Positions 100 to 60,867 of a DNA stretch of 64,000 nt are shown here, piece after piece. Source of the stretch: Zootoca vivipara. Lineage: Eukaryota. The notes under the pieces are model-generated. The model did no database searches, was not told where the DNA came from, and was given only the letters and a program-made list of their open reading frames with translations. How positions within the stretch are numbered: position 1 is the stretch's first letter; the number at the start of each line of letters is the position of its first letter. Where the stretch lies: the NCBI RefSeq assembly GCF_963506605.1, contig NC_083292.1:35836001-35900000 (forward strand), given 5' to 3'. The position numbers and the translations under genes were made by a program.

Positions 100-186
100 C
101 AAAGTCTCGGAGGAGTAGAAATGGACAGAAGGAGATCAAGTTCAGGGAAGCTGTTGAGATATCTCAGCCCAGGGAACCCTTTTATA
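100..186 (-). promoter_or_regulatory. Core promoter and non-coding exon 1 of a CBP gene (g0) whose coding exon lies left of the window
   Basis: Minus-strand TATAAAA (180-186), ACAGCTT at 154-148, donor G|GTAAGT at 100/99; homologous to the g3 promoter/exon 1 (17649-17735). Confidence 0.8.
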
Positions 187-746
187 CTCTTTTGACTGGA
201 TCCCCTGATGGCCCCACAGCTGGCTTGGATACACCCCCTGTTCCTCTGAAGCTGGAATTAGCAAATAATTTGTGATATGCCTCAGGCCCGCTAATTATTT
301 TAATAATAATGAAAAATGAGACAAAAGTGTTAGCATTTCCTCAACTTCCCACAACGCGTCTCTCCCACTCTGACACGTTTGATCTTGGCTTCTTAAAACT
401 TCTGCAAAACAAAGTTGAAAGAAATGAGTGTATGTTCCTTTTCTGACAGATCAACAGATATGTTGTCCCCATTTTCCCCCTCTTCAAAATAGCTAAAGTA
501 GCCGTGGGTGTTCAGAGTGGGCTACTTGACTTTCATATCCAGGATTTCAGTTGATCTTTCCAGCCACAACACATTGCCATCGTTCTCTACCTCCACTGCA
601 GTGGGAACCATTGGGAAGAGGGCTATTGAAATCACATCCTTCTTGTGGGTTTTTCATTGAATCTGGTTGGGCACAGTGGGGACAGGATGCTGGTCTAGAT
701 GCGGTTTTTCCTTTTTATTTATTTTTCTGATTATTATTTTTTAAAA

Positions 747-972
747 GAGAGCTAGTGTGGTATAGTGGTTAAGAGCGGTAGACTCGTAATCTGGGGAACC
801 GGGTTCGCGTCTCCGCTCCTCCACATGCAGCTGCTGGGTGACCTTGGGCTAGTCACACTTCTCTGAAGTCTCTCAGCCCCACTCACCTCACAGAGTGTTT
901 GTTGTGGGGGAGGAAGGGAAAGGAGAATGTTAGCCACTTTGAGACTTCTTCGGGTAGTGATAAAGCGGGATA
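747..972 (+). mobile_element. tRNA-derived squamate SINE (Squam1-like), cut by the assembly gap
   Basis: Head GAGCTAGTGTGGTATAGTGGTTAAGAGC (A box) and GGGTTCGCGTCTCC (B-box-like); a truncated head of the same family occurs at ~22070. Confidence 0.7.
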
Positions 973-1101
973 NNNNNNNNNNNNNNNNNNNNNNNNNNNN
1001 NNNNNNNNNNNNNNNNNNNNNNNNNNNNNNNNNNNNNNNNNNNNNNNNNNNNNNNNNNNNNNNNNNNNNNNNNNNNNNNNNNNNNNNNNNNNNNNNNNNN
1101 N
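973..1101. other. Assembly gap (129 N)
   Basis: Run of N. Confidence 1.
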
Positions 1102-2346
1102 CAAGAAACATTCCACATATTAGCAAGGCAAACAGTGCTGTAAAATATGAAGCAGGTTAGACTCATCGTTTAGAGTTGGTTTTTATCGCTTCTGTCTTCC
1201 ACTTTGCCTTAACTTATTGCTCCAGAGTGAGCAATGGGTGGCTTTGTTCTTTCCACTGTGTTGAGTAAACATATACCATACAGTTTCCAAGTGATCTTTG
1301 GTCTTTATGTTTCTTGGTGCTCTAAAATGCTTCACTTGGTGTCTCCGCAAGAGCTATGTTCCATAGTCATCATGCTTCTGAAGCTAAACTAGTTGCTGTT
1401 TTCCAATGTTGTGTTTATGAATTTCTAGCTGCAGACCAAAAGACTGCTAGATCCTTCCACATTTAATTTTTATGGACATCTCTTAACAAATTAAGTAAAG
1501 CTAGCTTTTAATCAGGTTGTATCGCCTGCCTGTAATAAAAGATATCTCTTCAAAGGCAATTTCAAAAAATAACTGTATAAGTAATGCTCTAATATTCATT
1601 GACACAAGATTATCATATATACAGGTACCCAATGAGGCAACATTATTCGACTGTGTTAGTGAGAAAACATGGTTTTTTTGGGGGGGGGAATAGGTTTGAT
1701 GTATCCAGTGATGATGGGAGTTGTGATCCAGTAAAACATCTGGAGAACTACAGATTTAGCTGCCCTGTACTAGAAAATGGTGCCAGTAAATAAAGGATCA
1801 AATATTAAACTCACTTATTATATTAGCCATTCCTGGATTACACAAATTTCCAATCTCTCTCTAATTCATAATGCCAAAGTTGCCAACAAAATGCAAAATT
1901 TTTAAAAAATGTAATAAAATCCCTGAATAGCCACCTGTTTCCATATTCATTCTTACACAAGCATCAGAAATCCTATCCTCTGTCCCATCAATATGCAAGA
2001 TTGCATGGGGCAGATAGAAGAGATGGCAGCTTTTTGGTGATCTGTTGTTTATCCATACTGAGAGTAGACCTATTGAAAGCAATGAACAAGCCAGCCATCA
2101 CCCTTGATTTTTTATGGATGTAACCTAAGAATGATATCCACCATCACAATCACTTCAGCTATCAGTGTTTGTGATTTGTTGCTAATAAATGAAAGTGTTT
2201 CAGTGGTTTCTGAAAACGGGATTGCTATTTGCTTGGTGTGTGTGTGTGTGTGGAAGTTTTTAATGTTTGAAGTTTTGTCATGTTTTTAATATTCTGCCAG
2301 GAGCTGCCCAGAGCGACTGGGGAATAATAATAATAGTAGTAGTAGT

Positions 2347-2384
<38 letters not shown>

Positions 2385-2625
2385 TCTTTTTGGGTGTTCG
2401 GGGTGTTAAGGGATGGATAGTACCTCTGTTTGGGGACACAACATGCTCCTTTTCAGATAATTTGCCCACCTTTGGTCCCCACCCTGCCCTCAAATCTCAC
2501 CTGTGGCTCCTAGAAGCTGGCAACATGCGACATTGGCCACACCCCAGGAGCAGCTTCGACTGTCCAGCTAAACCAGGTGAGGGTAGCCAATGGACCTCAA
2601 ACCCTTAGTGAGCTAGGAGACCAAT

Positions 2626-4097: not shown

Positions 4098-4181
4098 TAT
4101 ATAAAAGCTCAGAGTTCTCTCACTTCCTCCAACAGCTTCACCTGACTCTTCTGTCTTCACTACATCTTCTCAAAGAAGCAG
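4098..4181 (+). promoter_or_regulatory. g1 core promoter and non-coding exon 1
   Basis: TATATAAAA 4098-4106, ACAGCTT 4132-4138, donor CAG|GTAAGT at 4181/4182; AP-1-like TGAGTCA at 4072-4078. Confidence 0.85.
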
Positions 4182-4391
4182 GTAAGTCCGATTTCTTGGG
4201 GGAATATTTCGGAATTTATCAGAAGTTTATGACAGTGGAAGGCTAGATTGATATTCCCACTAGAGCAAGGATGATCATCCTTTGGTCCTTGAACTTTGGT
4301 CACTCTAGTCTTGACCTTTGGGCTTGCTGGCTGAGGGGACTAGAGTCCAGTGACAACCGGAGGACTATAGTTCATCCTACCTACTTCATAC

Positions 4392-4790: not shown

Positions 4791-5444
4791 TGATCCCTAA
4801 TTGGTTGGGACATGTTGGACAGGAGAGAATAAGTACTGGGCTTCCAATTGTTGTTGAAGTACAATTGTCATGATCCTTGACCATAGGACATGCTGTCTAC
4901 ATCTGATGGGAGTCGAAGCATCATATCTGACGATTTATGATGCTCTGTTGCTTTTTGGTTTTCATGCTCCATTTTCTGCTCACTTCTGCAATCTTGTTTT
5001 TTTAAAAAAAATAGTTTTATTTGAAAATTTGTTAAAACATTACACAACATCTTCGAACCAATCCAAGAACATTCAGCTGCATTTTTCACATATCGAAATT
5101 ATGAGGTATCGAAAAGGAAAAAAGGGGGGGGGGTAAGAGAGAAAGGGGGGAATGAAATGTGAGTGGGCAAAAGGGCGTAGGGCCATGGGAGGGGGGGAAA
5201 TAAACAAACAAACAAAAGCAAAAAAAGGGGTAAACAGGGAGGGAAAAGGGTAGGGGTAGGAGAGGGAAAGGGAGGGGGCGAAGAAAGTAAAAAAAAGAAA
5301 AAAAGAAAAAAAGAAAAAAAAGATCTTGTTTTTTAGATTCATCTTCAGTCATGGTTGACTGTGGTCCATCCCCATTGAAGTGATGTACCCCACACTTATT
5401 TTCTCCCTTGGTGTTTTTGCTTTCAGTCTCACCTCCATCCAACA

Positions 5445-5948
5445 ATGGTTGACTGTGGTCCATCCTGCGCCGTCCCATCCTGTGCTTCCACCCCCACCGT
5501 TGGATTCGGATCAGCAGGAGGTCTTGGCTATGGTGGTCTCGGCTCTGGATTGGGAGGTCTCGGCTATGGATGGGGAGGTCAGGGCTTCGGATTTGGAGGC
5601 CTGGGCTATGGATATGGAGGTGCTGAAAGAGCAGCCAATCTCGGTGTCCTGGATGGAGTCATCCCTTCATGCATCAATCAGATCCCACCAGCAGAGGTCG
5701 TCATCCAGCCACCTGCCTCCATTGTGACCATCCCAGGGCCCATCCTGTCTGCCAGCTGTGAGCCTGTGGCTGTTGGAGGCAACACTCCATGTGCTGTTGG
5801 TGGTTCCGGGATCGTAGGGGGTTATGGAGGGTGGGGCTATGGGTCTGGCCTCCTTGGAAGCTCTGGGGGCTGGGGCTATGGTTTGGGCTACGGGAAGGGG
5901 GCACTCCTTGGCAGGAGGTTTGGGCGTCGTGGTAACATCTGTGCGTAG
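5445..5948 (+). CDS. Corneous beta-protein (beta-keratin), Gly/Tyr-rich, g1, 167 aa
   Basis: CBP beta-sheet core CINQIPPAEVVIQPPASIVTIPGPILSASCEPVAVGG; N-term CGPSCAVPSCAS; acceptor TTTCAG at 5421-5426; AATAAA 6168-6173. Confidence 0.95.
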   Translation: MVDCGPSCAVPSCASTPTVGFGSAGGLGYGGLGSGLGGLGYGWGGQGFGFGGLGYGYGGAERAANLGVLDGVIPSCINQIPPAEVVIQPPASIVTIPGPILSASCEPVAVGGNTPCAVGGSGIVGGYGGWGYGSGLLGSSGGWGYGLGYGKGALLGRRFGRRGNICA

Positions 5949-9771: not shown

Positions 9772-9826
9772 TTATATGTCTTCATTAAACTTAAGGATCT
9801 CTATTCTCTCCCTCTCTCCTCATGTA

Positions 9827-10547: not shown

Positions 10548-11390
10548 CATAGGTAGGCAAACTAGGGCCCGGGAACCGGATCCGGCCCAATCACCTTCTC
10601 AATCCGGCCCGCGGATGGTCTGGGAATCAGCGTGTTTTTACATGAGTAGAATGTGTGCTTTTATTTAAAATCTCTGGGTTATTTGTGGGGCATAGGAATT
10701 TGTTCATCCACCCCCCCCCCCAAAAAAAAATAGTCTGGCCCACCACAAAGTCTGAGAGACGGTGGACTGGCCCCCCGCTGAAAAACTTTGCCGATCCTTC
10801 ATTAAAATTTGCCAATCTAGTATGCTGCGTGTGTTTTTGCTTTTCAAGTTTCTTGTGACTAATACTCTTGCCGCTACTATTCCATACATTAACAGCGTTC
10901 TATTTGCACTTTTAATATCCTCTGGAATTATATTTAGAAGAAACATTTCTAATGAAAGAATACTCACAGCTAGCAAAATTTACTGGAAGAATTAGAGGGC
11001 AAACGAAACAAAACAAAACAAAAAGGAATGGAGGATCTTTGGTGAATATATATTGGATAATAAGATATCCAAAATCCAAACGGCAGAACATAATTGAACC
11101 TAAATTGAAGTTAAAGGAAATATAATGAGTAAATAGAATAAGAATTGTGCGATATAGTAAGGATAATATATGTAAATTACAGAGTGAAAAATTGGAAGTC
11201 AACATAGAGAAGACATGAATGAATGTTTAATTTATATTTTTGCTTTTTTTCTATTGTTAAAGATTTTTTTGTATGTACTGTAGAATGTTTTTCTTTTCTT
11301 TTCTGTAAACATGTTGTGTGTTAATGTTTTTAAAGAAAGAAACTAATAAAAAATTATTTTTTAAAAAATGAAAAAGTTTGCTGACCCCTG
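10548..11390. mobile_element. hAT MITE carrying a nested L1 3' fragment
   Basis: 8-bp TSD GTCTAGAC (10540-10547, 11391-11398); ends CATAGGTAGGCAAACT / AGTTTGCTGACCCCTG; mirror copy at 56596-57419. Confidence 0.75.
10798..11367 (+). mobile_element. L1 3' fragment with 5' inversion (twin priming)
   Basis: ORF2 C-terminal ...LLMYGIVAARVLVTRNLK...ILDWQILM on minus strand (10798-10967), continuation LAKFTGRIRGQ on plus strand from ~10968, AATAAA and A-rich tail. Confidence 0.7.
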
Positions 11391-12145
11391 GTCTAGACTC
11401 TTGAGGGTCACTTGATATGTACCCCCAATCAAGGTGCACCAAGGACTCTTCTTGAACCCTATAACCTTCCCTGTTGTTATGAGAAATCTATTCCCCTAGT
11501 CATATGATTTAATTATGACCCACTTCCCCAAATGACAGCAAAGAGGAATCAGGAGAAGGGGCACAACTGCTTCCTTGCACCTATTTAACCCACCCTCCCT
11601 GGTCCTTTAGCGATCAGCAAAAAGTTGCATTTGGCCCCTGACAATGATTCATTTCTCTGAATGAATAACCAGTCAGGGTGCCCCGGAGAGAGACCCTGTA
11701 CTCATGTTGAATAAGAGGAGAATAGTAATTTCTAGAGGAATATAACATACTTTTTCCACACTCAATGTAAACCCTTCAGGATGCAAGAGAGAAAGATACT
11801 TCCCCCCCCCCCAATACTCAAAAAAAGGGTTTAAGACCTTGGACACCTTGCTACGAGATACTGGAGGTGGAGTTATAAAAACAAAGACACACAGGTTATC
11901 AGAATGCAGAACAAGCTTTATTGAAAAGGTCAAAGAAAAAGAAAGGATAGTTGTACAATAGGCAAAAAAGGTGCATATTGTAGATAGTTCTTGGTCTTCT
12001 CAACTTCCTAATACAGAGGGGGGAATTAAGAGGGTTCAACTTCAGCAGCGGTTGCTTGGATTCAGGTCTTCTGAACCTTAGTGAATGGATCTGTATCAAG
12101 CTCTCTGATTATCAGTTCGTAATATTATTCTCGGGTTTAATTGAC

Positions 12146-38959: not shown

Positions 38960-39350
38960 GCCACGCCTCCCCACCCCCATAGTATCTATTTTCAAAAATA
39001 AAATGTTCCCACTGGCCCGCAAAGACTGGTATAATTTAGGTGTAATTACAAACGATATTCCTGGCAATCAAAGGAAAGTATTCCTCTATGCAACAACAGC
39101 TGCCAGGATGCTCATAGCAAAATATTGGAAAGGGAGGGAAATCCCATCAATAAAAGAACGGCAAATTAAACTTTGTGAATATATAAATTTGGCAAGATTT
39201 ACAGCATCCTTAAGGGGATAATCGGACCAAAAATGAGCAAAAGAATGGGATTGTGTTAAAGAATATATGAAAAAAACATTGTTCTGGAGTAAGTATATCA
39301 GTATGTAACGAAAGAAGCTTTGCAGGGTTAAAGAAATTGAAAAACCAGGG
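38960..39350 (+). mobile_element. L1 ORF2 3' fragment in g5 intron
   Basis: FLYATTAARMLIAKYWK motif; mirror ~59080-59460. Confidence 0.75.
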
Positions 39351-39507
39351 GCTTGGTTCCCATGCTTGTCATAATTTAAGCAGACCCATTTAAATCAATG
39401 GACATGTCTACTCAGATTGGTAGTTGGATGCAACCCATAGTTTTCATTGCTTGTTTCTTGGATATGATGTTACATATGTGCCTGCCTATGTCTTTCCAGA
39501 CTCAACC

Positions 39508-43037: not shown

Positions 43038-46000
43038 CAGCATTGATAAGGCATAGAACCAAGGAAATAAAGAGAGAGGTATCACTGTTTTTTTTAAGAT
43101 GGTCTGTCTCAGCAAGAGGGGAAAACTTCAAATTTGGATTAGAGGGACATTTAATGAACATTCCATTCATTTCTTAGATTCTGTAGATCAAATTGATTTA
43201 CTGATAGCAAATATCTATAAAAACTGACCACTGGCTTTTTAGTCTCAAAGGATTTAACCAATTGTTCTAATACCTCTGGTGTATTAGATGCTGGGAAGGC
43301 TGCCAAAGGCCTGAGAGAAGAGGAATGTTTTTGCCTGGCACCTAAAGATATTTAATGAAGGCATCAGTTGAACCTCCTTGGGGAAAGCATTCCAAAAACA
43401 GAGAACCACAAAAGAAAATGTCCATTTTCTTTTTGCTTTCCATCAGACCTCTCATGGAGTAACTTAAGACGAGTCTCAGATGGTGATCCCAGGTACTGGG
43501 TCAGTTCATATGGGCAGAGGTGGTCCTTGAGATATTGCAGTCCTGAGCCATTTAAGGCTTCATTGGGCCAAGAAACTAATTAGCCAGTGGAGTCAGTGGA
43601 GTCAGGAGTTATATGCTCAAACCATCCTGCCCTAGTGAGCAACCCAGCCACCAAATTCTGCACCAGCTGATGTTTCTGAACTGTTTTCAGAGGCAGCTTC
43701 TAACCTAGTGGTAGAGGCAACAGAGGTTAGGCCAGTGATGGCCAAACTTGGCCCTCCAGCTGTTTGGGACTACGATTCCCATCATCCCTGACCACTGGTC
43801 CTGTTAGCTAGGGATCATGGGAGTTGTAGTCCCAAACCAGCTGGAGGGACAAGCTTGGCCATCACTGGGTTAGGCTATCCCTGTTCAGATAGCAGCTCAG
43901 CTGGCTCACCAGCCAAATCTGATGAAAGGCACTCCATGCCACCGAGGCCAAATGAACCTCAAGTGACAGCAATGGAACCAGAAGGACCTCCAAGCTGTTC
44001 CTTCGGGAGCTATGTAACCAGGCCACCTCCCATCTATCCAGTCTACGGAACCACCCACTAACTGTATCTCAGTCTTATCTGGACTGAGCTTCAGTTTATT
44101 GGCTCTCAGTCAGTCCATTACCAAGGCAAGATAACTGCCTGGCACTTCCACTGACAAGCCTTGATATATTAATTTTAGAAACCTAGGATAAAATACTAAC
44201 TGCTGACAGACAGGAAAAATTGGGGTTTTTTGCCCTTCCGGATTTGGAGTTGTACCGTGTGGCAGCAGGTTTAGTCTGGTTAAAAGAATGGATAACCTTA
44301 AATGACCCAGAGATATTAGACCTAGAAGGGGTGGATTACCAATATGGTTTGCATTCATACTTAATATATGATAAAGTTAAAGTCCACAAGGGTTTCTTGA
44401 ACCACTTGGTAAGGAAGTCACTATACCTGATTTGGTCAAAGTATAAGGGAATTCTGGAGCCCAAGATCCCTCTGTGGGTATCACCAAAAGAGGTTGTAAC
44501 AGTGCCATTATCTTGATATATAAACGAGAAGTAGAGCTGTGTGTCATAAGCATATCCGGCACTGTGGTGCAAAACTCCCTCTGGTTCCCACCCCCACCCC
44601 CATTCCCCAGAGTTGTTGATCTTTTTCTTGGGAGGATGGTTGCAGGGCTAGAGGAGGCGGGCAGCGGCTGGAGGGCAGCTCCTCTGGCGGGGAAGAGGCA
44701 GAGGCTGGATGCGGTGCCTTCCAGCTCAGCTGGCCACTTCGTGTCGCGGTGGCAACGGCAGGCGGAGGCTCCGGGAGCGGCGCTGCTTCGGGCGAGGGTG
44801 GCGAGTTGATCTTGGCTGGCGCCACATCCAGCCTCTGCCTCTTCCCTGGCACCCTCCAGAACTTGGCACCCTGGCGCTCTGTGCCACTAGCCTCTATGGG
44901 TAAGACACCCCTGCTGAAGACCCACTCCAAAACTCCAGATAACCCCACTCAGCAGTTTCATGCAGATGTTAAACAGCATGAGGGATAAAATCAAACCCTC
45001 ACGGAGCCAAAGAGCACTTCCCAAGCACCACCCACAGGAAATCTAAGTAGGACCGGAACCACTGCAGAACAGTGCCACTCACGTTTATCTTAGGCTGGAT
45101 CTAGACACATCCAAGAAGTGTTTCACTTTCTACCACATGTGGTGGTTATGTAAGAAAATACAGGTATTCTGGGAGAGTATTCACTCAGAACTGCAAAAAA
45201 TGATAAAGATCTCCTTTAATAAAAAACCAGAAGCCTGTCTCCTGGGAATTACAGATTTGGGTATTCTGCAAAAAATCTTTTTATATGCTACGGTGGCAGC
45301 AAGAGTTCTCATAGCAGCAAAATGGAAGAGCATTGAACTTCCCTCTATACATGAATGGATCCAAAAGCTGACAGAATATGCCGAATTAGATGGTCTATCA
45401 GAAAAAAATAAAGAATAAACCAAAACAGGAATTTGTTTCAAAATGAGAGGTTTTCAAATAATATTTGAAATATGATTACAGTAGTTTAAACTCTGTTGCA
45501 GCATTCAAGGAACTTCAGTAATAATTGCAAGTTAGACATAAGAGTTATGATATATTAAGAAAAAGTTAAATTATGATAAAAGTGTGTACGTATTGGAAAT
45601 TAGTAATATGAAAATGAAATAAGGAATAGAAGGGAGGTTAGGTCTATAGTGTTAAGACCAACTTATTTTTTATTGTTTGGTAAGAAAATTTTGTGTTTAT
45701 TGTTATTCTTGTGTGTAATTCTGTATCTGAGTTTTCTTTTTTCTTTTTGTATCAATAAAAATACTTTTTAAAAAAGAAGTGTTTCAGTGAAATGCATTGC
45801 AAACTTTGCATGAGAAATCAGGTTGGCGAAAACAGAACTCCACAGCACCATCTGGTGTTAGAATGCATAAACAATGCATATAAAAACACTTTTTCTTTGC
45901 CAGTGTTCACCAGATTATGAGTCCACTGCTTTTAACCACTACACCACACTGGCTCTAAGTTATTGCTTTAGCATGGCAAGTTAGTAATTCTAACACTTGG

Positions 46001-48382
46001 AACAAAGAGATGGGATGTTTGTGTTTGGCTTGCTAGGGAAGCAACTTTAGAATATATGAAAGTGTACTGTAGCCTGTGTGAGAACTGGTCAAGGCTAGAA
46101 CCACCTATCCAACCTATTTATCACAGTATTTTGCAGGAGGGTGAAACAAGGCATTATTCCAGAAATCCTTGTCAAGATTCTGTGGAACTGCAGTAAGCTC
46201 CTATTTGGATTTTATGAATATACAAAGACATACATGGAACAGAAACTTGCAAATATTTGGACTCTATGAATGAACTGATCTATTGGGACTTCCGTTTACT
46301 TTGTTACACTTTATGTGTTCACTATGTGCAAGAGAAATATTTGATACTGTGATGAATACAGAAGAGCATTGTTTATGTGAAAGCACAGCCAGTTACGTTT
46401 TGTGTGTTTGATCCTGATCGTAGACAAAGGATGTGAAAGCTGCGGTCCTCCAGTTTGGAAGAACTACAGTACTATAGTACCCATCAGTCCCAGCAAGCAT
46501 GGCTGATAGGAGCTGTAGTCCAATGACATCTAGTTGGCTGTAGCACCTGCAGGCACCTGATCCCTGTCTTAGACAAAAACAGTTACACCCAAAGGAGGCT
46601 GTGACAGAGGTTCTACCTGTACCATTATCCTTCTGGTCAAATTGGTTTATGGGCCGAATAGGTAATGCCTTTTCTATGATTCTCCCAAATGATGGAATAC
46701 AATTTCCATTTAAATGAGAATTGTCTCACCTGTGCATTAAAAAAAAATTAAGCAGGTTTTAATTGGTATTGTTTTGAGTTACCTTTTCATAGAATCATAG
46801 AAACGTAGAGTTGGAAGGGACCCCAAGGGTTCTAGTGCAACCCCCTGCAATGGAGGAATCTCAGCTAAAGCATCCATGACAGATGGTCATCCAACGTCTG
46901 CTTCAAAACCTCCAAGGAAGGAGAGTCCACAACCTCCTGAGAGAGACTGTTTCGCAGTCAAACAGCTCCTACTGTCAGAAAGTACTTCCGGGTGTTTAGA
47001 TGGAATCTTCTTTCTTGTAACTTGAAGCCCTTGGTTCAAATCCTGCCCTCAAGAGCAAGAGAAAAACAAGATTGTTCCCTCTTCCATGTGAAAGCCCTTG
47101 AGATATTTGAAGAGGGCTATCCTTTCTCCTCGGTCTCCTCTTTTCCAAGCTAAGCATGCCCAGCTCCTTCAACCATTTTTCATAAAGCTTTGTTTTCTTT
47201 GAGGAAAGGGCTGTAGCTCAGTTGTAGAACACCTGCTTTGCATGCAAAAGGTCCCAGGATCAATCCCTATCATCTCCAGGGAGTGCTAGGAAAAGGACTC
47301 CTGTCTTAAACTCTGGGAGATGCTACAGCCATTATAGACCTTACCGAGCTAGGTAGACCAATGGCCTGACTTTGTATAAGGCAGCTTCTTGATTTTTTAA
47401 CTGGGGTCATTTAAGGCTGGGTTCATTTAACTGGTAAGTTGTTTTTAAATGACTAACTTTTATTTGCTGGAATGCATGTCGATTTTGGGTGTCTCTTATC
47501 TGCTTTAAAGAATTCTTGAGCTTTTCTCATATAGTAGCTTGATATATTCTGCTTATCTCCTCTCATAATTCTAGAACTTGGGGCCATGCAATGAAGTTGA
47601 ATGTCAGAAGATCCAGGACAAGGGGTGGGGCAATGACTTCTTCAAATAGGGCATATTTAAACTACAAAATTCTTTCACACAATGGTTAAGAGATGGTCAT
47701 CAAATTGGATGCCTCTAAGACAGGGTTAGACAAATTCATGGGGGATAAATGACTACCAGCCATTATCTCTATATGTCCTCTCCCCACTGTTGGGGGTAGC
47801 CTATCTCTGAATGCTAGTTGCTTAGAAACACAAGTAGGGAATGATGCTGTTGCACTTATGACATGCTTGTGAGCTTCCCACTGGGTCATCTGGGCTGTGT
47901 GAGAACAGGGTCATTGATAAGATGGGCCTTTGATCTGATCCAGCAGGCCTACCCTTATCTCCTTGTAAGAGATGTGCCCCTAAGAGCAACTTGCCCGAAA
48001 GTGTATGCTTGCACTGATAAAAAAAGATAATGTCCCAATGAGGTGCCAAACTAAGAGAGTCAATTCAGAATGAACTTTAATGGAAACATGAAAAGTGTCA
48101 AGCAGGCAATTGTAAAAGAAGCAGGACAGGAACAAGGCAAAGGAACACACTATACAATGTGGCTCTCAACTTCTTCTTGGTCTGGAGGGTCTAGTGGGAA
48201 AGCATGAGAAAGGAAAGATGACAGAGACTCGTGTAAATGCTGTTGGCTTAGATGATGGTCCCAGAAACTCAGATTTTCCAGAATCCAAGGTGAGACACTC
48301 AATAATGGATAGGCATGATCTTCACCCATTCAGGGTCATTCAAATCATCATCACACAGATTTTCTTCAAGAGTTCAATATAT

Positions 48383-48871
48383 CTAATTGCACACACTACC
48401 ACGACGCCCCAGCAGGGATCTCCTTCCAAAGAGGCCACCCCTCCTCAAACCATAGCCCCAAGAGCTTCCAATGAGGCCATCCCCATAGCCCCACCCACCG
48501 TAACCATAGCCTCCTACGATCCCGGAACCACCAACAGCACATGGAGTGTTGCCTCCAACAGACACGGGCTCACAGCTGGCAGAGAGGATGGGCCCTGGGA
48601 TGGTCAGGACGGAGGCAGGTGGCTGGATCACGACCTCTGCTGGTGGGATCTGGTTGACGCATGATGGGGCAACTCCTGCCAGGACTCCGAGGTTGGTTGC
48701 TCTTTCAGCACCTCCATAACCATAGCCAAGACCTCCATATCCGTAGCCTAGACCTCCATATCCATACCCAAGACCTCCATACCCATAGCCAAGACCTCCT
48801 GCTGATCCAAATCCAACAGTGGGGGTGGAAGCACAGGATGGGACAGCACAGAATGGACCACAGTCAACCAT
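48383..48871 (-). CDS. Corneous beta-protein g6, 162 aa (mirror of g3)
   Basis: Same core as g3, four GGLGYGY repeats; acceptor ending 48890; ATTAAA 48081-48076. Confidence 0.95.
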   Translation of the reverse strand: MVDCGPFCAVPSCASTPTVGFGSAGGLGYGYGGLGYGYGGLGYGYGGLGYGYGGAERATNLGVLAGVAPSCVNQIPPAEVVIQPPASVLTIPGPILSASCEPVSVGGNTPCAVGGSGIVGGYGYGGWGYGDGLIGSSWGYGLRRGGLFGRRSLLGRRGSVCN

Positions 48872-49212
48872 TGTTGGGTAGAGATGAGTCTGAAACCAAG
48901 AAGAACATGGGAGCAAATGAACATGTGGAATGCCACTCCAATGGGGTATGCAGGGGACATTTAAATCAGCTGCCTTTGACAGTTCTAAAATTATGCCCCA
49001 ATGCTTGGATTCTTTATTGTTTTCTCTTCTTTTCACCACCACCCTTCTCTTCATTGTGGGTCCCAAATCCAAATACTAGCAACTCCAGGAATGTCTGAGA
49101 ATGTCATCTATCTGAAACTCTGGAGAATAGTTTCCAGTCAGTGAGGACAAAAGTGAACTAGAAGGTCCAATGGTCTATCTTGGTAAAAAGCAACTCCCAA
49201 AGTTTCTATTTA

Positions 49213-49522
49213 GAGACGCGGGTGGCGCTGTGGTCTAAAGCACAGAGCCTAGGGCTTGCTGATCGGAAGGTCGGCGGTTCAAATCCCCACGACAGGCGAG
49301 CTCCCGTTGCTTGGTCCCAGCTCCTGCCAACCTAGCAGTTCGAAAGCACGTCCGAGTGCAAGTAGATAAATAGGTACCACTCAGGCGGGAAAGTAAACTG
49401 TGTTTCTGTGTGCTGCTCTGGTTCACCACATGAACCTTGGCCAGTAAAGCGAGATGAGCACTGCAAACCCAGGGTCGTCCACAACTGGACCTAATGGACA
49501 GGGGTCCCTTTACCTTTACCTT
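49213..49522 (+). mobile_element. Sauria SINE in g6 intron
   Basis: Mirror of 18548-18858; TSD AAGTTTCTATTTA. Confidence 0.9.
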
Positions 49523-50340
49523 AAGTTTCTATTTAAACCAGACCTTTATCTGGAACAATGCATGCAGAAATCTTTCTTTCTTTTTCTTTTCCAGAGGAAG
49601 GACCATTACTCATTAACAGAACATATGTTTTGCATTCGATCCCTGAAATATGCAGGTTGGGCTGGGGAAAAATCTCTCATCTGAAGCCCTAGAGAGCCTC
49701 GGACAGTCAGAGAAGACAATACTGAACTCAATGGATCAATTTTAAGGCTGTTTCCTATATTATTACTTTCTTCGTCTGCCAAATCTTCCACGAGAACAAA
49801 TTTATATCAGCCTATGCAATAAATACTTCCCCTATGCCGACTTCTGTTTGTTTTTTATCTTCCTGATTGGATTTGCACAACTTGTGAGAGAATAAGACAC
49901 TCTCACCGCCTCCACCACCCAGGGAAACAAAAATGAATAGTTTTGAAAGAATGCTATAAGATGCAAGAAAGGAAGGGCTATAGTGAATTGTTAGAGCATC
50001 TCCTTTGCATGCAGAAAGTCCTGACTTCATTCCCCAACATCTCCAGGTTAGGTTTGGAAGAAAAACCTTCCTTGATGCCCTGGAGAACTGCAGCCGATCA
50101 AACATTACATTGCTGGACGGATAAAAACTCTGGTCTCGGTGTAAGGCAACCTCCTAAACGTTTGTGTTCAGAAGAAATACATAGAAAACAAGCCAGCCAG
50201 CAACATGGAGGATGTAGGATTCCTGGTGGAATAGCAACATACCCCACAACATAATGGAATTTTAGAGTTCGCTTGGAATTTGGTTAGCTGAACCCTCTGA
50301 GCAGTGCAAAGATCCCAACATACATACACATTTGACTTAC

Positions 50341-50427
50341 CAAAGTCTCTGAGCAGTAAAAATGGAGAGAAGGAGATCAAGTCAAGTAAAGCTGTTGGAA
50401 TATCTCAGCCCAAGGAACCCTTTTATA
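50341..50427 (-). promoter_or_regulatory. g6 core promoter and non-coding exon 1
   Basis: TATAAAA 50427-50421, ACAGCTT starting 50395, donor at 50341/50340. Confidence 0.85.
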
Positions 50428-52239
50428 CTCTTTTGACTGTATCCCCTGATGGCCCCACAGCTAACTGGGATACACCCCCTTTCCCTGAGGCTTTAATTAG
50501 CAAGCGATTTATGAATTGCATCATGCCCTCTAATTGTTTTAATAAGGAAGGGAAAACGGGGCAAAAGAGTTCACATTTCCTCTGCTCCCCACAACGCTTC
50601 TTTCCCATTCTCACCCTTTTGATCTTTGCATTCTCATTCTTCCACAAAAGAAGTTAATAAAAAAAAATTAAGAAAATGTAAAGATGCCTTTGTATGTTCA
50701 TTTCGGACAGATCAACAGGTGCTATGGCTTTGAAGAGAATTAAAGTAGCTGGAATGGCTGGAGATTTTATCAGTAGCCTACTTGACTTTCATATCCAAGA
50801 TTTCAGCTGATCATTCTGTTCACAGCACATAGCCAGTTCTTCTCTGCCTCCACTGTCAGAGGTAGCATGCCTCTGAATACCAGTTGCTGGGAATCAGAAT
50901 TGGGGAATGGGACAATGAGTTCCTGTCCTTCTTAGGGGATTCCTATTGACATCTGGTTGACCACTATGAGAACAGAATCTTCCTAATGCTCTAGCGTTCA
51001 TTGACACATAGATGTCACATACACATGTATGATTAAATGTACCCAGTGAAGTGAAATGATTTTGAAGAGTTAGCAAAAAAATCACAATTATTTGAAGCCC
51101 ACCCCCAAATAAAACGATTGAAGATATAAAAGGATAATGTAGGCAGGGATGATGCAAAACATCTGGAGGACCACCACTGTATTAGACACCACTTTCCGCA
51201 CCACTGTCGTACTAGACACAAGTCCCAACCAATCAGGGATCACATATTAAATTCTCTTGTAGTATTAGCCACCCCTAATTTCCTGAATTTCTAGCCCACC
51301 TGTGACTTGTAATGCCAACGTGACTGACACAATGCAAGGGTGAAATTTAATAACGATGCTTTTAAAAAATCCCTTGATAGCCACTTGTTTAAATCTTCAT
51401 CTTTGAGATCTGCATGGGGAATGGGGAATCCTACCCACTATTCCATCAATATGCAAGATCAGATGGGCAGATCGAAGAGCTGGTGCCTTCATGGTGATCG
51501 GTTGAGATCTGTTGGTATCCACACTGTTAGACACTTTCTGAAATGCTAAAGTTATTTTCAACTAGCTCATGTTAGACCTATTGAAAGCAATGGACAGGGT
51601 ATGCCAGGAAATGGGGAATTATGATCACATGTGGTGGAAGTGTAAATATGTACATTTTTTTTTTTTTGCAAAGGGTATTAAAGGAGATAACAGAAATCAC
51701 TGGGTTAAAGCTGACTGAAAGTCCAGAGGTAGCATTATTATCAATTTATGATGGAGTGGAAGGTTTGCAGGCTATGAATAACTTGGTCACAAATTTACTG
51801 ACAGCTGCACGACTTATTATAGCTAAGAAGTGGAAGGGGCAAGCAGAATATAAAATGGAAGAATGGTCTATATGGGATATAGCTGTTAATGATAAATTAA
51901 CGTGTCATTGAGGTAAGACGGGAAATATACAGGAGAAATTATTTTGAGGAAATATGGAGGGTGTTTGTAGAATTTGTACTGTTAAAACAGAAAGGGGTCA
52001 AACCATCACAAGAGGTGTTGAAATTTTGGGAGGTTGGATAGTTACAATGGGATGGTCTCAGTGGTGGGGTGCACATTTTTATTCTTATTTATTTATGAAT
52101 ATTACATTGTAGAAGAAGAAGAAGAAGAAGAAGAAGAAGAAGAAGAAGAAGAAGAAGAAGAAGAAGAAGAAGAAGAAGAAGAAGAAGAAGAAGAAGACAA
52201 CGAAAGCAATGGACAAGTCAGTCAACATCATGCATTTTG

Positions 52240-52484
52240 TTTTTGGTTTTTTAAATTCATCTTTATTTCTTATTAAAAAATCACAAATCCACACAAATCA
52301 ACACAATATAACATAACATAACATAATCAAACATAATCAATAATAAACACATCAACACATCAAGAAAAAGGAAAAAAAAACAAAAATAGAAGAATGAAAA
52401 AATAAAACAAAAAAGGGAGGAAAGTAACAACAACAACAAAATACAGGTTAAAAAAATAACTTCCAAACATTTAATATCGGTTCC
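52240..52484 (-). mobile_element. Short L1-type 3' UTR/poly-A insertion (right arm only)
   Basis: 11-bp TSD CATGCATTTTG (52229-52239, 52485-52495); empty site at ~15685. Confidence 0.7.
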
Positions 52485-53572
52485 CATGCATTTTGATGGA
52501 ACTTTCCTGAGAATGAGTTTATTGGATGCAACCCATCATAATTTCAGCTATGTTTGTGTGTGGCTTGTCGCTCTTAAATTAGCATGTTCTAAACTACAGA
52601 TTCGGAATACATGCCATACATTTTCTTGGCTTCCCAATATGCAAGTTTTAATTGCTTTTAAAGCTGCCTTTTTAAAAAGAAAAAAGTAGTGTTTTCTTTT
52701 TGGTTTCAACTTAGTACTGATTTTATATATCTGGTTTAGATGCTTACCATTATTTTGCTTGGGTTTTCTTTTTTTTAACCACACATGCACACAGACACTA
52801 TCTTCTATTGAAGTTGGAACAGCCCCCTCCCACTGATGCCACCCAGAAGACCACTCCAGATTAACTCTAGATTTTTGCCAGGCTGAAGGAAACAACTCTG
52901 ACCTCCTAGGACAAGTGAAGAAGATAACATATGAGCCCTGAAGCTGGATCAAACCAAAGGCCCATGTTGTCCAGCATCCTCTTTCCTGCAGTGGTCAACC
53001 AGATGCACAAGTAGAACATAGGGACCATAGCTCTTTCTCACTATTGTTCTCTTCCAAGTGGCATTGGTGCTCTCAGGTCCTAATTGTGAGTTCCCCATTG
53101 AGGCTTCTGGTTCTGCACTGGTAATACAAGATGCTGAATTAGATGGTCCTTTGGCCTCATCCAGCAGGGCTTTTCTGATGTGCTCAAGGCATTCAAGGAC
53201 ACCAATTTAATCTGATACCGGAGATGTCTCAGAACGTGTATGCAAAAAGCTTTGATCATGTCCTAGAGTCCCCTACACTGATGAAAGAGCTTTGATGATC
53301 TCCATCTCCTCCCTCTGGGTGTTTCTGATTTAAAACAGCAGATAAACTAGAGCAATTTGACTCAAGGTCAGCAAAATTAAAAGGAAGGGAGAGGGCAACA
53401 AACTGGTGTCAAGACTATTTGTGTTGCATTATTGCAACCACTTAATTTTGTGACCTCCCTCTTTTGTGCTTAGTAAAGTACTTTTGCACATGAAATTGTT
53501 GACAACTAAATAAAATGTTACGGTAGCTGGAAAGAGGCAGTCTCTTGGTCACAGGAGTGGCTGACAGAACGG

Positions 53573-53654
53573 TATAAAAATGGAAACTTCTCCCAGTTCC
53601 TCCAACAGCTTCATCTGACTCTCTGGTCTTCATTACATCTTCTCAAAGAAGCAG
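53573..53654 (+). promoter_or_regulatory. g7 core promoter and non-coding exon 1
   Basis: TATAAAA 53573-53579, ACAGCTT 53605-53611, donor CAG|GTAAGT 53654/53655. Confidence 0.85.
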
Positions 53655-54534
53655 GTAAGTCCATTTTCTAGGGGAAATGTTTCCGAATTTATCAAAAATT
53701 AAGACTAGATTGATTTTTCAGCTTCACACTTTCTAAGTGCATTTAATATGATATTGCTAGAAGAAAATCTAATTAAGCATTTTTAAGGAAGATGCGACCA
53801 GCATTTTTAAGGAAGATGCGACCAGCTCTCCATTTTCTTCCTTCCTTCCTAAATGATATTTACATATACACTTCTGCTTTTGCAGCAAAAAAACCTCTGC
53901 ATTTTACTCAAAAGTAAACTCAACTGTGATGTGCTTACTCTCTGGTAAAAAGACAAAGGATGGCTGTCTTATTTTTTCTCAAGCTCATCCCCAACTTGCT
54001 GGATAATGGTCCAGTATGTTCAAGATATATGTTGATAGCATTGTTGATAAAACATGCCTTTTTTTAAAAGAAACTTACTGGGTTATCTCAGCATTTTTTA
54101 TATTTCCAAACATCAGTATTGGGGGTAGCCAGCATAGAACTAGATGTTGTGGATTAAAACGACAAGACAAGGGGTCATTCATTAGTGGTCCATCCCCATG
54201 TTTTGCATGTACAAGGTCCCAAGATCAGTCCCTTACATCTTCAGTGGGGCCAGTAATGTCCCCTCTCTGGACGCAGGAGAGTCATTGACAATCAGTGTAA
54301 ACAATATTGACAATAAATACCTCATTAAGTATATGGCAACTAATCTTCTCATCACCCTTAGCTCAGAGGCTGCAGAGGGGAGAAGCTGGGAAAGAAGAAG
54401 CACCAGGGGAGAGAGAGCTGACAGACTCAGTGTCTTTAGAAAGCATTCCAGGAAACCCACCCACCCCCCGGACCTAGAGGGCATTGAAATAAGAGAACAG
54501 AAAGCTCAGGGGCACAAAGCACAGATCAGCCAAC

Positions 54535-54950
54535 ATTGTTGTTTAGTCGTTCAGTCGTGTCCGACTCTTTGTGACCCCATGGACCAGCGCAAGCCAGGCA
54601 CTCCTGTCTTCCACTGCCTCCTGCAGTTTGGTCAGACTCATGTTGGTGGCTTCGAGAACACTGTCCGATCATCTCATCCTCTGTCGTCCCCTTCTCCTTG
54701 TGCCCTCCATCTTTCCCAACATCAGGGTCATTTCCAGGGAGTCTTCTCTTCTCATGAGGTGGCCAAAGTATTGGAGCCTCAGCTTCATGATTTGTCCTTC
54801 CAGTGAGCACTCAGGGCTGATTTCCTTCAGAATGGATAGGTTTTATCTACTTGCAGTCTCAAGAGTCTCCTCCAGCACCATAATTCAAAAGCATCAATTC
54901 TTCGGCGATCAGCCTTCTTTATGGTCCAGCTCTCACTTCCATACATTCCA
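54535..54950 (-). mobile_element. BovB 3' fragment in g7 intron
   Basis: Mirror of 13010-13410, retains the (CAA)n tail. Confidence 0.9.
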
Positions 54951-55337
54951 ACGTAGGGGTGACATATAATAGGAGAGACAGAGGGGGTGGGGTTTCACTC
55001 AGAGCAATGACATTAACCCGAGATGATACGTTTCTAAGTCTCTCTGTGTGAACATTGAATAAAATACCTTGGTAAGAACGTCTTGTCTATCTATTGCTGG
55101 CAGCCTGCCGTGAGGGAGGGGGATTGGATTCCCTGAAGCCTGACACTTCCCTTCTTCTCTTTCCATGGTTCATTTTGCATATCTTTTATCCCTGCATATT
55201 TTACAAAAAAACCTATATCAATGGGTTTTCCATTATTATATCCATCAAAAATTATTTGCACTGTTGAATTTATCTTCATGCTGCCAGAGTTTTCAGCTGT
55301 ACACATGCAATTTTATGTTTTAGTTTCATCTTCAGCC

Positions 55338-55826
55338 ATGGCTTTCTGTGGCCCATCCTGTGCTGTCCCATCCTGTGCTTCCACCCCCACCGTTGGATTT
55401 GGATCTGCAGCTCTTCATAGACGCGGAAGTCTTGGCTACGGATACGGAGGTCTTGGCTACGGCTATGGAGGTCTCGGCTATGGTTATGGAGGTGCTGAAA
55501 GAGCAGCCAATCTCGGTGTCCTGGACGGAGTCATCCCTTCATGCGTCAACCAGATCCCACCAGCAGAGGTCGTCATCCAGCCACCTCCCACTGTCTTGAC
55601 CATCCCAGGGCCCATCCTCTCTGCCAGCTGCGAGCCTGTGTCTGTTGGAGGCAACACTCCATGTGCTGTTGGTGGTTCCGGGATCGTAGGGGGTTATGGC
55701 TATGGAGGGTGGGGCTATGGGTCTGGCCTCCTTGGAAGCTCTGGGGGCTGGGGCTATGGTTTGGGCTCCGGGAAGGGGGCACTCCTTGGAAGGAGGTTTG
55801 GGCGCCGTGGTAGCATCTGTTCATAG
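55338..55826 (+). CDS. Corneous beta-protein g7, 162 aa (protein identical to g2)
   Basis: Translation identical to g2; acceptor AG 55322-55323; AATAAA 56050-56055. Confidence 0.95.
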   Translation: MAFCGPSCAVPSCASTPTVGFGSAALHRRGSLGYGYGGLGYGYGGLGYGYGGAERAANLGVLDGVIPSCVNQIPPAEVVIQPPPTVLTIPGPILSASCEPVSVGGNTPCAVGGSGIVGGYGYGGWGYGSGLLGSSGGWGYGLGSGKGALLGRRFGRRGSICS

Positions 55827-56595
55827 GTCAATTAAACCCGAGAATCATATTACGAACTGATAATCAGAGAGCTTGATACAGATCCATTCACTAAGGTTCA
55901 GAAGACCTGAATCCAAGCAACCGCTGCTGAAGTTGAACCCTCTTAATTCCCCCCTCTGTATTAGGAAGTTGAGAAGACCAAGAACTATCTACAATATGCA
56001 CCTTTTTGCCCTATTGTACAACTATCCTTTCTTTTTCTTTGACCTTTTCAATAAAGCTTGTTCTGCATTCTGATAACCTGTGTGTCTTTGTTTTTAAAAC
56101 TCCACCTCCAGCTTCTCGTAGCAAGGTGCCCAAGGTCTTAAACCCTTTTTTGTCCAAATCAAAATTGGAGTATTGGGGGGGGGGGAGTATCTTTATCTCT
56201 TGCATCCTGAAGGGTTTACATTGAGTGTGGAAAAGGCATGTTATATTCCTCTAGAAATTACTATTCTCCTCTTATTCAACATGAGTACAGGATCTCTCTC
56301 CGGGGCACCCTGACTGGTTATTCATTCAGAGAAATGAATCATAATCAGGGGCCAAATGCAACTTTTTGCTGATTGCTAAAGGTCCAGGGAGGGTGGGTTA
56401 AATAGGTGCAAGGAAGCAGTTGTGCCCCTTCTCCTGATTCCTCTTTGCTGTCATTTGGGGAAGTGGGTCATAATTAAATCATATGACTGGGGGAATAGAT
56501 TTCTCATAACAACAGGGAAGGTTATAGGGTTCAAGAAGAGTCCTTGGTGCGCCTTGATTGGGGGTACATATCAAGTGACCCTCAAGAGTCTAGAC

Positions 56596-57419
56596 CAGGG
56601 GTCAGCAAACTTTTTCATTTTTTTAAAATAAATTTTTATTAGTTTCTTTCTTTCAAAACATTAACACACAACATGTTTACAGAAAAGAAAAGAAAAACAT
56701 TCTACAGTACATACAAAAAAATCTTTAACAATAGAAAAAAAGCAAAAATATAAATTAAACATTCATTCATGTCTTCTCTATGTTGACTTCCAATTTTTCA
56801 CTCTGTAATTTACATATATTATCCTTACTATATCGCACAATTCTTATTCTATTTACTCATTATATTTCCTTTAACTTCAATTTAGGTTCAATTATGTTCT
56901 GCCGTTTGGATTTTGGATATCTTATTATCCAATATATATTCACCAAAGATCCTCCATTCCTTTTTGTTTTGTTTTGTTTCGTTTGCCCTCTAATTCTTCC
57001 AGTAAATTTTGCTAGCTGTGAGTATTCTTTCATTAGAATTGTTCCTTCTAAATATAATTCCAGAGGATATTAAAAGTGCAAATAGAACGCTGTTAATGTA
57101 TGGAATAGTAGCGGCAAGAGTATTAGTCACAAGAAACTTGAAAAGCAAAAACACACCCAGCATACTAGATTGGCAAATTTTAATGAAGGATCGGCAAAGT
57201 TTTTCAGCGGGGGGCCAGTCCACCGTCTCTCAGACTTTGTGGTGGGCCGGACTATTTTTTTTTGGGGGGGGGGGTGGATGAACATATTCCTATGCCCCAC
57301 AAATAACCCAGAGATTTTAAATAAAAGCACACGTTCTACTCATGTAAAAACACGGTGATTCCCAGACCATCCGCGGGCCGGATTGAGAAGGCGATTGGGC
57401 CCTAGTTTGCCTATCTATG
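56596..57419. mobile_element. hAT MITE with nested inverted L1 fragment (mirror of 10548-11390)
   Basis: TSD GTCTAGAC. Confidence 0.75.
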
Positions 57420-57427
57420 GTCTAGAC

Positions 57428-57989: not shown

Positions 57990-58342
57990 TGTCTGGCTCG
58001 AGGGATTTTCTCCTCCCCCAGTAGCATCAAGGAAGAAACAAGAAAGTTCGTATTTATGGTTTTATTCAGTCATCGTGGTGAAAGGCAAATAATTCCAGTC
58101 TTTAACTCCATACTGACGTTGCTCACTCTGATCTCCTCCCCTTCCTTCCCCAGCAACAGCCTGTGGCTCAGCAACACTCCTGAGGGGGGCCTCAGGAGTC
58201 AAATGTTGTTGAGCCCTTGGCTCTTGAATTCTCGTTGAGCGGCGAGTATGTGGGGATGGTGGAGATTCTGTGCTTTCCAAGGACATCTCTGCTGGCAGTT
58301 CTCCAACTCCCACTCCTTCTTCTGACACCTCATAACTTGGCA
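57990..58342 (-). mobile_element. 5'-truncated copy of the 9267-9771 solo LTR, now in the g8 3' UTR
   Basis: Reverse complement of 9437-9771; AATAAA at 58066-58061. Confidence 0.8.
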
Positions 58343-58415
58343 AATCTAAAATGAGACATAAATAGTCCACCCCAGATCTCTTTTTCTTTCCTCCTTGCTG
58401 ACAGACCGTGAGAGC

Positions 58416-58925
58416 TTAGCAGGGGGTATAGCAGATGCTGCCTCTACGCCCCACAAACCCATAACGGCCACGGCCCCCCAAAGCACCAGAGCTAGACCCC
58501 AGAAGACCTGCACCACCATAGAGACCTCTGCCAAATCCACTGCCAAATCCACTGCCAAATCCGGATCCATAACCGCCAGCAGCACATGGGGTGTTGCCTC
58601 CGACAGACACAGGCTCGCAACTGGCAGAGAGGATGGGTCCTGGGATGGTCACGATGGAGGCGGGTGGCTGGATCACGACCTCTGCTGGTGGGATCTGGTT
58701 GACGCATGAAGGCTGGACTCCAGAAAGAATACCAAGACTAGCAGAAGGGACGCCGGATCCAACCAGGGCACCGGAGCCAAAGCCATAACCAGAACCATAG
58801 CCAAATCCACAGCCAAGGCCACCGCCAAGGCCACTGCCAAGGCCAACAAGACCGGCTGATCCAAAACCAACGACTGGGGTGGAAGCACAAGATGGGACAG
58901 CGCAGGATGGTCCACAGGAAGCCAT
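58416..58925 (-). CDS. Corneous beta-protein g8, 169 aa
   Basis: Paralog of g4/g5; acceptor ending 58934; intact ORF. Confidence 0.93.
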   Translation of the reverse strand: MASCGPSCAVPSCASTPVVGFGSAGLVGLGSGLGGGLGCGFGYGSGYGFGSGALVGSGVPSASLGILSGVQPSCVNQIPPAEVVIQPPASIVTIPGPILSASCEPVSVGGNTPCAAGGYGSGFGSGFGSGFGRGLYGGAGLLGSSSGALGGRGRYGFVGRRGSICYTPC

Positions 58926-59691
58926 GGTTGAGTCTGGAAAGACATAGGCAGGCACATATGTAACATCATATCCAAGAAACAAGCAATGAAAACTATGGGT
59001 TGCATCCAACCACCAATCTGAGTAGACATGTCCATTGATTTAAATGGGTCTGCTTAAATTATGACAAGCATGGGAACCAAGCCTCTGATTTTTCAATTTC
59101 TTTAACCCTGCAAAGCTTCATTCGTTACATACCGATATACTTACTCCAGAACAATGTTTTTTTTCATATATTCTTTAACACAACCCCGTTCTTTTGCTCA
59201 TTTTTAGTCCGTTTGTCCACCTTGAGGATGGTGTAAATCTTGCCAAATTTATATATTCACAAAGTTTAATTTGCCATTCTTTTATTGATGGGATTTCCCT
59301 CCCTTTCCAATATTTTGCTATGAGCATCCTGGCAGCTGTTGTTGCATAGAGGAATACTTTCCTTTGATTGCCAGGAATATCGTTTGTAATTACACCTAAA
59401 TTATACCAGTCTTTGGGGGCCAGTGGAAACATTTTATTTTTGAAAATAGTTACTATAGGGGTGGGGAGGCATGGCCTATCAGAAATCAGCAGCATGCTTC
59501 TAAATACCAGTTGCTGGAAAATCCAGAAAGGGAGATTGCAATTGCATGTGGATCTTATGGGTGGGTTTTCAACAGGCATCTGATTGGCCTATGTGAGAAC
59601 AGGATGCTGAACTCAATGGGCCATTTGCCTGATCCAACAGCAGTTCCCAATACTGCTATTTAGATGAGGATCCTGGAATAAATCTCTACCC

Positions 59692-59827
59692 CAAGCATCC
59701 CCAAACTGCGGCCCTCCAGATGTTTTGGCCTACAACTCCCATGTTCCCTAGCTAACAGGACCAGTGGTCGGGGAAGATGAGAATTGTAGTCCAAAATATC
59801 TGGAGGGCCGAAGCTTGGGGATGCCTG
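59692..59827. mobile_element. 136-bp hAT MITE in g8 intron (absent from g5)
   Basis: Ends CAAGCATCCCCAA / TTGGGGATGCCTG, 8-bp TSD CTCTACCC. Confidence 0.85.
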
Positions 59828-60783
59828 CTCTACCCCCTCCCACACAGAATTACATCTCTGTTTCCAAAGAGAGAAGAAATATTAAATCAGTTTTAGGTTT
59901 GTATCATAGGTAGACACTCCAAGCATATAGAATAAAACATGCTGAGAATGTGGAATTCTAAATCCCCAGCTAACTGTTGAAAGGCGTTGGAAATTCAAAA
60001 GAGCTAGACATGTGTGTGGAAGTCTAAGAGAAATACTTCAAAGGAACTAGGTAGCACAAATACACCATGAAGATTTAGTATAAATGTGCATTGGTATTTA
60101 AAATCTCTGAGACAAGTCCTACGTTGGCAGGTATAAGTAAATGGGAGCAAACTGGAGCTCCTTCTGAGATGAATCAGTGTAACTATTCTAAAAGCTCTCC
60201 ATAAAGTAATATTTCATAGAATCACAGAACTGTAGCTTTTTACACCATCAATTCCTATAGCCATCAATTCAGACCTCCAGTGTAGGAGATATTGACTACC
60301 CAACTCTCTAGTCGATCACTTCCTTCATCAAACCAATCGGTTTCTTTGGGGAAGGATTCTGGCTCTGTTTAAAGCATCTACTTTGTAGGCAGAAGGCCCT
60401 GGTTCAATCCCCAGCATCTTCAGGTAGGGTTGGCAGATACACCCAATGTGGAACCCAGTATAGACCAGTTGTGGGGAATCTTTTACCCTCCAGGGACTGC
60501 TGAACTACTACATCCATCATCCCTGGCCATTGGCCATGCTTGCTAAGGATGACAGGAGACATAGCTCAGCAACCTCTGGAGGACCAAAGGTTTCCCACTC
60601 TTGGTGTATCCCACTCCTGGTGTAGACAATAATGAGCTAGATAGACCAATCATCTGAATTGATATAAGGCAGCTTCCTGTGCTCCTTGCTTTCCTACAAA
60701 CTGTGCTATGTCCAACCAATATTGACCTTCCTCTAGTTTTTACCCATTCGATCTATGCAAGGACTTGGACAAGCCAAGCTTAC

Positions 60784-60867
60784 CTGTGTTGTTTTGATGA
60801 GTGGGAAGTTGAGAGATGATGAGAGGTGAAGCTGTTGGTGAGCCGTGGAAGAAGGAGAGCTTTTATA
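60784..60867 (-). promoter_or_regulatory. g8 core promoter and non-coding exon 1 (same type as g5)
   Basis: TATAAAA 60867-60861, ACAGCTT starting 60835, donor at 60784/60783. Confidence 0.85.

Follow-up and report, generated by a model that had tools for sequence, protein, structure and literature searches.

A probable start-site block at a fixed distance from TATAAAA in the promoters of a Zootoca vivipara corneous beta-protein gene cluster

The promoters of a corneous beta-protein (CBP) gene cluster in the lizard Zootoca vivipara share an invariant heptamer, ACAGCTT, at a fixed distance from the TATA box. We analysed a stretch of 64,000 nucleotides of the forward strand (assembly GCF_963506605.1, contig NC_083292.1, positions 35,836,001 to 35,900,000; hereafter the window), in which nine CBP transcription units, numbered g0 to g8 along the stretch, carry the arrangement TATAAAA-N25-ACAGCTT. 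The heptamer probably represents the region around the start site in an ordinary focused promoter of the TATA plus initiator type, inherited by all units and held in place by selection on transcription initiation. It is predicted to mark where the non-coding exon 1 described for epidermal differentiation complex (EDC) genes begins. The architecture as such is already known; the conserved start block adds a little to it.

The window contains nine exact copies of TATAAAA-N25-ACAGCTT, which coincide with all nine coordinate pairs for which an initial annotation of this DNA had claimed the fixed spacing. When spacer lengths of 15–39 were scanned across the window, matches were found at 25 only. 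TATAAAA occurs 38 times and ACAGCTT 17 times in the window, and the background counts lead one to expect ~0.002 such pairs per fixed spacing, against the nine observed. At offsets 31–33 (offset denoting the distance from the first T of TATAAAA), the 29 other TATAAAA in the window match the heptamer at 5 of 7 bases at best. The GTAAG donor that had been placed 50–55 nt after the heptamer is likewise present in 9/9 units: it lies 50, 52, 53 or 55 nt past the first A of ACAGCTT and 82–87 nt past the first T of TATAAAA, the latter distance being 82, 84, 85 or 87 according to promoter type. GTAAG followed 60–90 nt downstream in all nine motif-bearing units, as compared with 1/29 of the other TATAAAA in the window.

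The nine cases are not independent. Large, recent, inverted segmental duplications of 95–97% identity (10584–24576 versus 43450–57401, and 34681–40105 versus 58340–63934) carry whole gene pairs, and g2/g7, g3/g6 and g5/g8 are copy pairs, within each of which the promoter and exon 1 are ~100% identical. Because of these near-identical duplicated copies, the nine cases reduce to six units and four promoter types. Type A consists of g0 and g3/g6 (84% identical), type B of g1 and g2/g7 (82%), type C of g4 and type D of g5/g8. Global alignment gave 56–62% identity between types, against 49–57% for between-type intron starts, which serve as a rough baseline. Over positions −200 to −1, 9/13 between-type pairs outscored 199 or more of the 200 mononucleotide shuffles, and 4/13 did not. 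Judged by these alignments, the four promoter types are homologous. They had initially been described as differing markedly both upstream and in the spacer; this is true of the spacer (34% identity), but the upstream regions are not unrelated.

Conservation between the types is concentrated in the start-site block. Ungapped between-type identity was 0.38 at −25 to −1, 0.34 at offsets 7–26, 0.57 at offsets 27–31, 1.00 at offsets 32–38 and 0.56 at offsets 39–48. Among the six units, 6/53 background columns were invariant, and the longest invariant run outside TATA, heptamer and donor was 2. If columns are assumed to be independent, a run of seven invariant columns has a probability of 2 × 10−5 over 100 places, or 3 × 10−3 at the upper bound of the background rate. 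The block exceeds 7 nt, with C at offset 30 in 9/9 units, A at 31 in 8/9, C at 39 in 7/9, A at 40 in 8/9 and C at 46 in 9/9. The interval between TATA and the heptamer is free of indels in the four types; indels are present on both sides, and 13 nt are inserted upstream in type A. Since the bases around the block, those of exon 1 in the window included, are less conserved than the block itself, selection is likely, and the initial proposal that the motif is under selection thus appears probable.

Other shared elements lie further upstream. A GG..GT.TC box, a pattern drawn post hoc, was found in 9/9 units, at −37 (types B, C and D) or −50 (type A) from TATA; in 7/9 units the box contains a match to RGGYGK, which we take to be a KLF/Sp-like site. 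AT-rich and TGCA-containing boxes occur ~90–120 nt upstream of TATA.

We predicted the start position from the established rules for TATA promoters. According to mouse cap analysis of gene expression (PMC1779604, partial text), the distance from the first T to the start is most often 30–31 nt, with a range of 27–34, and a pyrimidine–purine step occupies −1/+1; where the spacing is on the long side, such steps are depleted just upstream. A pyrimidine–purine dinucleotide was found 29–32 nt from the first T in all units. In 8/9, a C-A step gives a predicted +1 at offset 31, one base 5′ of ACAGCTT; in g4 alone, a T-A step at offsets 31–32 makes the first A of the heptamer the pyrimidine–purine start. 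A second C-A, inside the heptamer at offsets 33–34, is present in 9/9 units, and g5/g8 also have C-A at 28. Because the predicted start falls at 31 and the first A of the heptamer is preceded by A in 8/9 units, ACAGCTT most likely represents +2 to +8 of the predicted transcript. The idea that it is itself an initiator or +1 element therefore holds in part: the heptamer is placed where a TATA-driven start is expected, but the predicted +1 precedes it by one base.

The fit to a standard vertebrate focused promoter with a TATA box and an initiator (PMC1779604 and PMC4581360, partial texts) is good in the C-A located 31 nt from the first T in 8/9 units and in the constant spacing, and it is poor in other respects, which count against our interpretation. 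The initiator consensus used, YYANWYY (table of PMC4581360), is not matched in full: agreement is 4/7 at offset 31, 6/7 at offset 32 in g4 and 5/7 at offset 34. With only 4/7, generic initiator rules fail to explain the invariant G, C, T and T, and the downstream side is more conserved than the consensus demands. Seven invariant bases past +1 exceed what a pyrimidine–purine start needs, and a more specific constraint may be at work. The downstream core element (DCE), comprising SI (CTTC, +6 to +11), SII (CTGT, +16 to +21) and SIII (AGC, +30 to +34; PMC4581360, partial text), is matched in part. CTTC begins at +6 in 6/9 units, but it is missing from g3/g6, which have CTTT, and begins at +5 in g4; SII was found in 1/9 (g1, starting at +21) and SIII in 0/9 at the predicted +1. 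Full DCE membership was rejected on these counts.

Binding of the TATA-binding protein to TATAAAA sets initiation ~30–31 nt downstream. In the mechanism that we favour, one ancestral EDC/CBP promoter would have been inherited by all units, with C-A at offsets 30–31 as the predicted −1/+1 in 8/9 units, T-A at 31–32 taking this role in g4, and the second C-A at 33–34 as a possible minor start. ACAGCTT would then be +2 to +8 of a non-coding exon 1, which is predicted to be 51–56 nt long, G-poor and devoid of ATG in 9/9 units. Selection acting on start choice and on the contacts that the basal machinery makes near +1 would have preserved both the block and the TATA-to-block distance, the spacer drifting meanwhile. 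This TATA plus initiator core promoter perhaps also makes use of a DCE-SI-like CTTC at +6.

The published EDC promoters provide a test of how far the motif extends. Genes of the single-coding-exon EDC (SEDC) class have a TATA box, a non-coding exon 1, G-GTAAG at 60–90 nt and one coding exon (PMC4245816, PMC4760078 and PMC11431283, partial texts), a layout also seen in the promoter alignment of PMC4423139 (Figure S3). Beta-keratins constitute an SEDC subtype (PMC4245816, partial text), and KLF4/AP-1 sites are described for scaffoldin promoters (PMC5366951, partial text). The units in the window resemble SEDC genes in TATAAAA and G-GTAAG (82–87 nt here) and, by prediction, in a non-coding exon 1 rich in pyrimidines that would be spliced to a single coding exon. 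In contrast, the published SEDC consensus has no conserved start-site motif; exact ACAGCTT occurs in 0/42 of the aligned promoters, the closest being that of anole EDSCP.

We read 44 EDC promoters by eye: 42 from Figure S3 of PMC4423139 (27 chicken, 15 anole), an alligator promoter (PMC5827346, partial text) taken as EDCH6, and a wall-lizard promoter taken as EDM1. Chicken EDbeta is the only beta-keratin-like gene among them. Exact ACAGCTT was found in 0/44, and CAGCT within one base of register was absent in 40/44. Anole EDSCP has CCAGCTT in register (6/7) and a spacer end like that of g3; this gene lies inside the beta-keratin cluster, yet lacks the beta core (PMC4245816, partial text). The in-register sequence of chicken EDMTF4, like that of alligator EDCH6, is TCAGCTC. 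The TCAGCTT of chicken EDCH3 and the 5/7 match of anole LOR are both one base later than register. EDbeta, the sole outside beta-core gene in the set, agrees with the motif at 3/7 positions, and wall-lizard EDM1 did not match it. The in-register count for CAGCT, 3/44, compares with an expectation of 0.04 (one place) to 0.35 (nine placements), corresponding to P values of 9 × 10−6 to 5 × 10−3, which are post hoc and come from rows that are not independent. Ten avian EDCRP promoters, also read by eye, have a different invariant block, 10 nt long, around the predicted start, though these orthologues are alike over their whole length.

These comparisons lend no support to the proposal of a CBP-specific core-promoter code, since near matches in register occur in EDSCP, EDMTF4 and EDCH6, which are not classed as CBP genes, and EDbeta is without the motif. 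The in-register CAGCT of non-CBP EDC genes makes the motif core look older and wider than the CBPs. It is not invariant beyond this cluster and is missing from most of the EDC promoters compared. A metagenome scan with a 19-protein CBP alignment passed 1/23 candidate stretches; this one, bacterial-looking, with 68% GC and without TATAAA, was dismissed as a chance match. A text search of the tuatara paper supplement (PMC7393497) gave 0 matches, and exon-1 primers published for turtle do not reveal where the motif would lie. We found no paper naming the motif in a search that most subscription journals lay beyond; older cDNA papers on chicken feather keratins and lizard beta-keratins may already report cap sites.

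Other explanations for the invariant block were weighed against an inherited start-site region. Rather unlikely, in our estimate, is that the epidermal differentiation genes of sauropsids have an undescribed core-promoter element, anchored to TATA and consisting of CAGCT at 33–37 nt from the first T. Some EDC lineages (those of lacertid CBPs, anole EDSCP, chicken EDMTF4 and alligator EDCH6) would have retained it since the lepidosaur–archosaur split, and it would either be read by a specific factor or act as a twin initiator for high output in cornifying keratinocytes. If true, it would extend the short list of vertebrate gene-family core-promoter elements and would give a direct handle on the high, layer-specific expression of scale and feather genes. 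An element dedicated to the family, in which a keratinocyte factor or a TFIID variant would bind CAGCT(T) at a set distance from TATA and so govern the expression of CBP-cluster or some EDC genes, seems unlikely; it would widen the initially proposed code past the CBPs. The invariance over four deeply diverged types agrees with it, as do the post hoc enrichment of CAGCT in the TATA register (3/44) and the location of anole EDSCP within the beta-keratin cluster. However, none of the 44 promoters has the exact motif, 40 have no CAGCT within one base of register, EDbeta scores 3/7, and the three CAGCT carriers are not classed as CBP genes; moreover, shared descent combined with start-site constraint yields the identical pattern, and the candidate factor is hypothetical.

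Transcription from the predicted +1 would include the block, in a predicted exon that is short (51–56 nt), G-poor and ATG-free in all units, as would be expected if the first 8 nt after the cap mattered for translation, RNA stability or the definition of a short first exon. We nevertheless consider such a constraint at the RNA level quite unlikely, as conservation reaches upstream of the predicted +1 (offset 30), the distance from TATA is kept and no common fold was found. A shared exon-1 hairpin was rejected, with minimum free energies of 0 to −5.8 kcal/mol and the motif paired in some types only. Neutral inheritance of a chance ancestral remnant, or homogenisation by gene conversion, draws on the homology of all the promoters and on the evident conversion and recombination in the cluster (g4 with its g5-like exon 2, and the g1 mosaic, both described below). 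It is strongly to be doubted, because the flanks, at 34–38% identity between types, would be too dissimilar for a conversion tract of ~10 nt, and the longest other invariant run is 2. It is very improbable that the CAG within the motif serves as a 3′ splice site, the predicted exon 1 doubling as an internal exon of transcripts begun further upstream. In types B, C and D, 9–12 of the 15 nt before CAG are pyrimidines, and it is followed by bases like those that follow some exon-2 acceptors; type A, however, has only 7/15 pyrimidines, neither an invariant CTT nor constant spacing from TATA is required of an acceptor, and SEDC genes are published as having two exons (PMC4245816, partial text).

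The core promoters are located as follows, with extent and strand followed by TATAAAA, ACAGCTT, predicted non-coding exon 1 and the first base of the donor. Type A is represented by g0 (95–186, minus; 186–180, 154–148, 155–100, 99), g3 (17649–17740, plus; 17649–17655, 17681–17687, 17680–17735, 17736) and g6, a recent copy of g3 (50336–50427, minus; 50427–50421, 50395–50389, 50396–50341, 50340). Type B includes g1 (4100–4186, plus; 4100–4106, 4132–4138, 4131–4181, 4182), g2 (14207–14293, minus; 14293–14287, 14261–14255, 14262–14212, 14211) and g7, a recent copy of g2 (53573–53659, plus; 53573–53579, 53605–53611, 53604–53654, 53655). The type C promoter belongs to g4 (29439–29528, minus; 29528–29522, 29496–29490, 29496–29444, 29443), and those of type D to g5 (37728–37816, plus; 37728–37734, 37760–37766, 37759–37811, 37812) and its recent copy g8 (60779–60867, minus; 60867–60861, 60835–60829, 60836–60784, 60783).

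Eight units have complete open reading frames (ORFs) of 141–173 aa, 1.3–1.9 kb downstream of TATA; the coding exon of g0 falls outside the window. On the plus strand lie the CBP coding sequences of g1 (5445–5948, 167 aa), g3 (19189–19614, 141 aa), g5 (39508–40029, 173 aa) and g7 (55338–55826, 162 aa), and on the minus strand those of g2 (12146–12634, 162 aa), g4 (27663–28172, 169 aa; 96–98% identical to the g5/g8 coding sequences), g6 (48383–48871, 162 aa) and g8 (58416–58925, 169 aa). All eight score above the cut-off of the Pfam beta-keratin core family PF02422 (31–39 bits versus 25), in agreement with their first description as CBP genes. The 83 matches to the g3 protein have lacertid proteins nearest (Zootoca 86%, Lacerta 65% and Podarcis 61% identical); the cluster is thus a lacertid-like CBP cluster. 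Sequence inspection points to an acceptor before the ATG, followed by an uninterrupted ORF, in 8/8 complete units. In g1, g2 and g3, the sequences after the motif CAG and after the exon-2 acceptor are alike (AG, two variable bases, TCAYCT), maybe reflecting a shared C/T-rich composition.

The g1 gene has two cassettes of acceptor and ATG on the plus strand at 5300–5480. The first combines a g2-like acceptor with an ATG at 5351 and a 10-aa ORF, and the second a g3-like acceptor with the ATG at 5445 and the full CBP ORF. This double cassette has the look of a scar left by recombination between genes of types B and A, and the choice of acceptor would determine the presence of an upstream ORF. The g4 exon 2 with its flanks (26835–28299) is 96.7% identical to that of its inverted partner g5 (39382–40856), the near-identity beginning ~130 nt before the ATG. 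Promoter and exon 1 of g4 and g5 are 62% identical and most of the intron 53–57%, so that they are of different types; probably, arm-to-arm conversion has placed a near-identical protein under two old promoters.

The promoters form head-to-head pairs 3.1–8.2 kb apart (186/4100, 14293/17649, 29528/37728 and 50427/53573), combining types A and B three times and C and D once; the partner of g8 would fall beyond the window. To judge from this arrangement, duplication seems to have proceeded by pairs. A 298-nt block of 68% identity is shared between the divergent promoters of g0/g1 (~1770–2050) and g2/g3 (~16570–16870), and is a candidate for a shared enhancer or an old repeat.

On our reading, TATAAAA-N25-(A/Y)CAGCT offers a practical marker for exon 1 and the probable start of transcription in these lizard CBP genes; without it, the TATA box and the donor are the sole basis for guessing their 5′ ends. 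The start-site block persists where the remaining promoter is nearly saturated.

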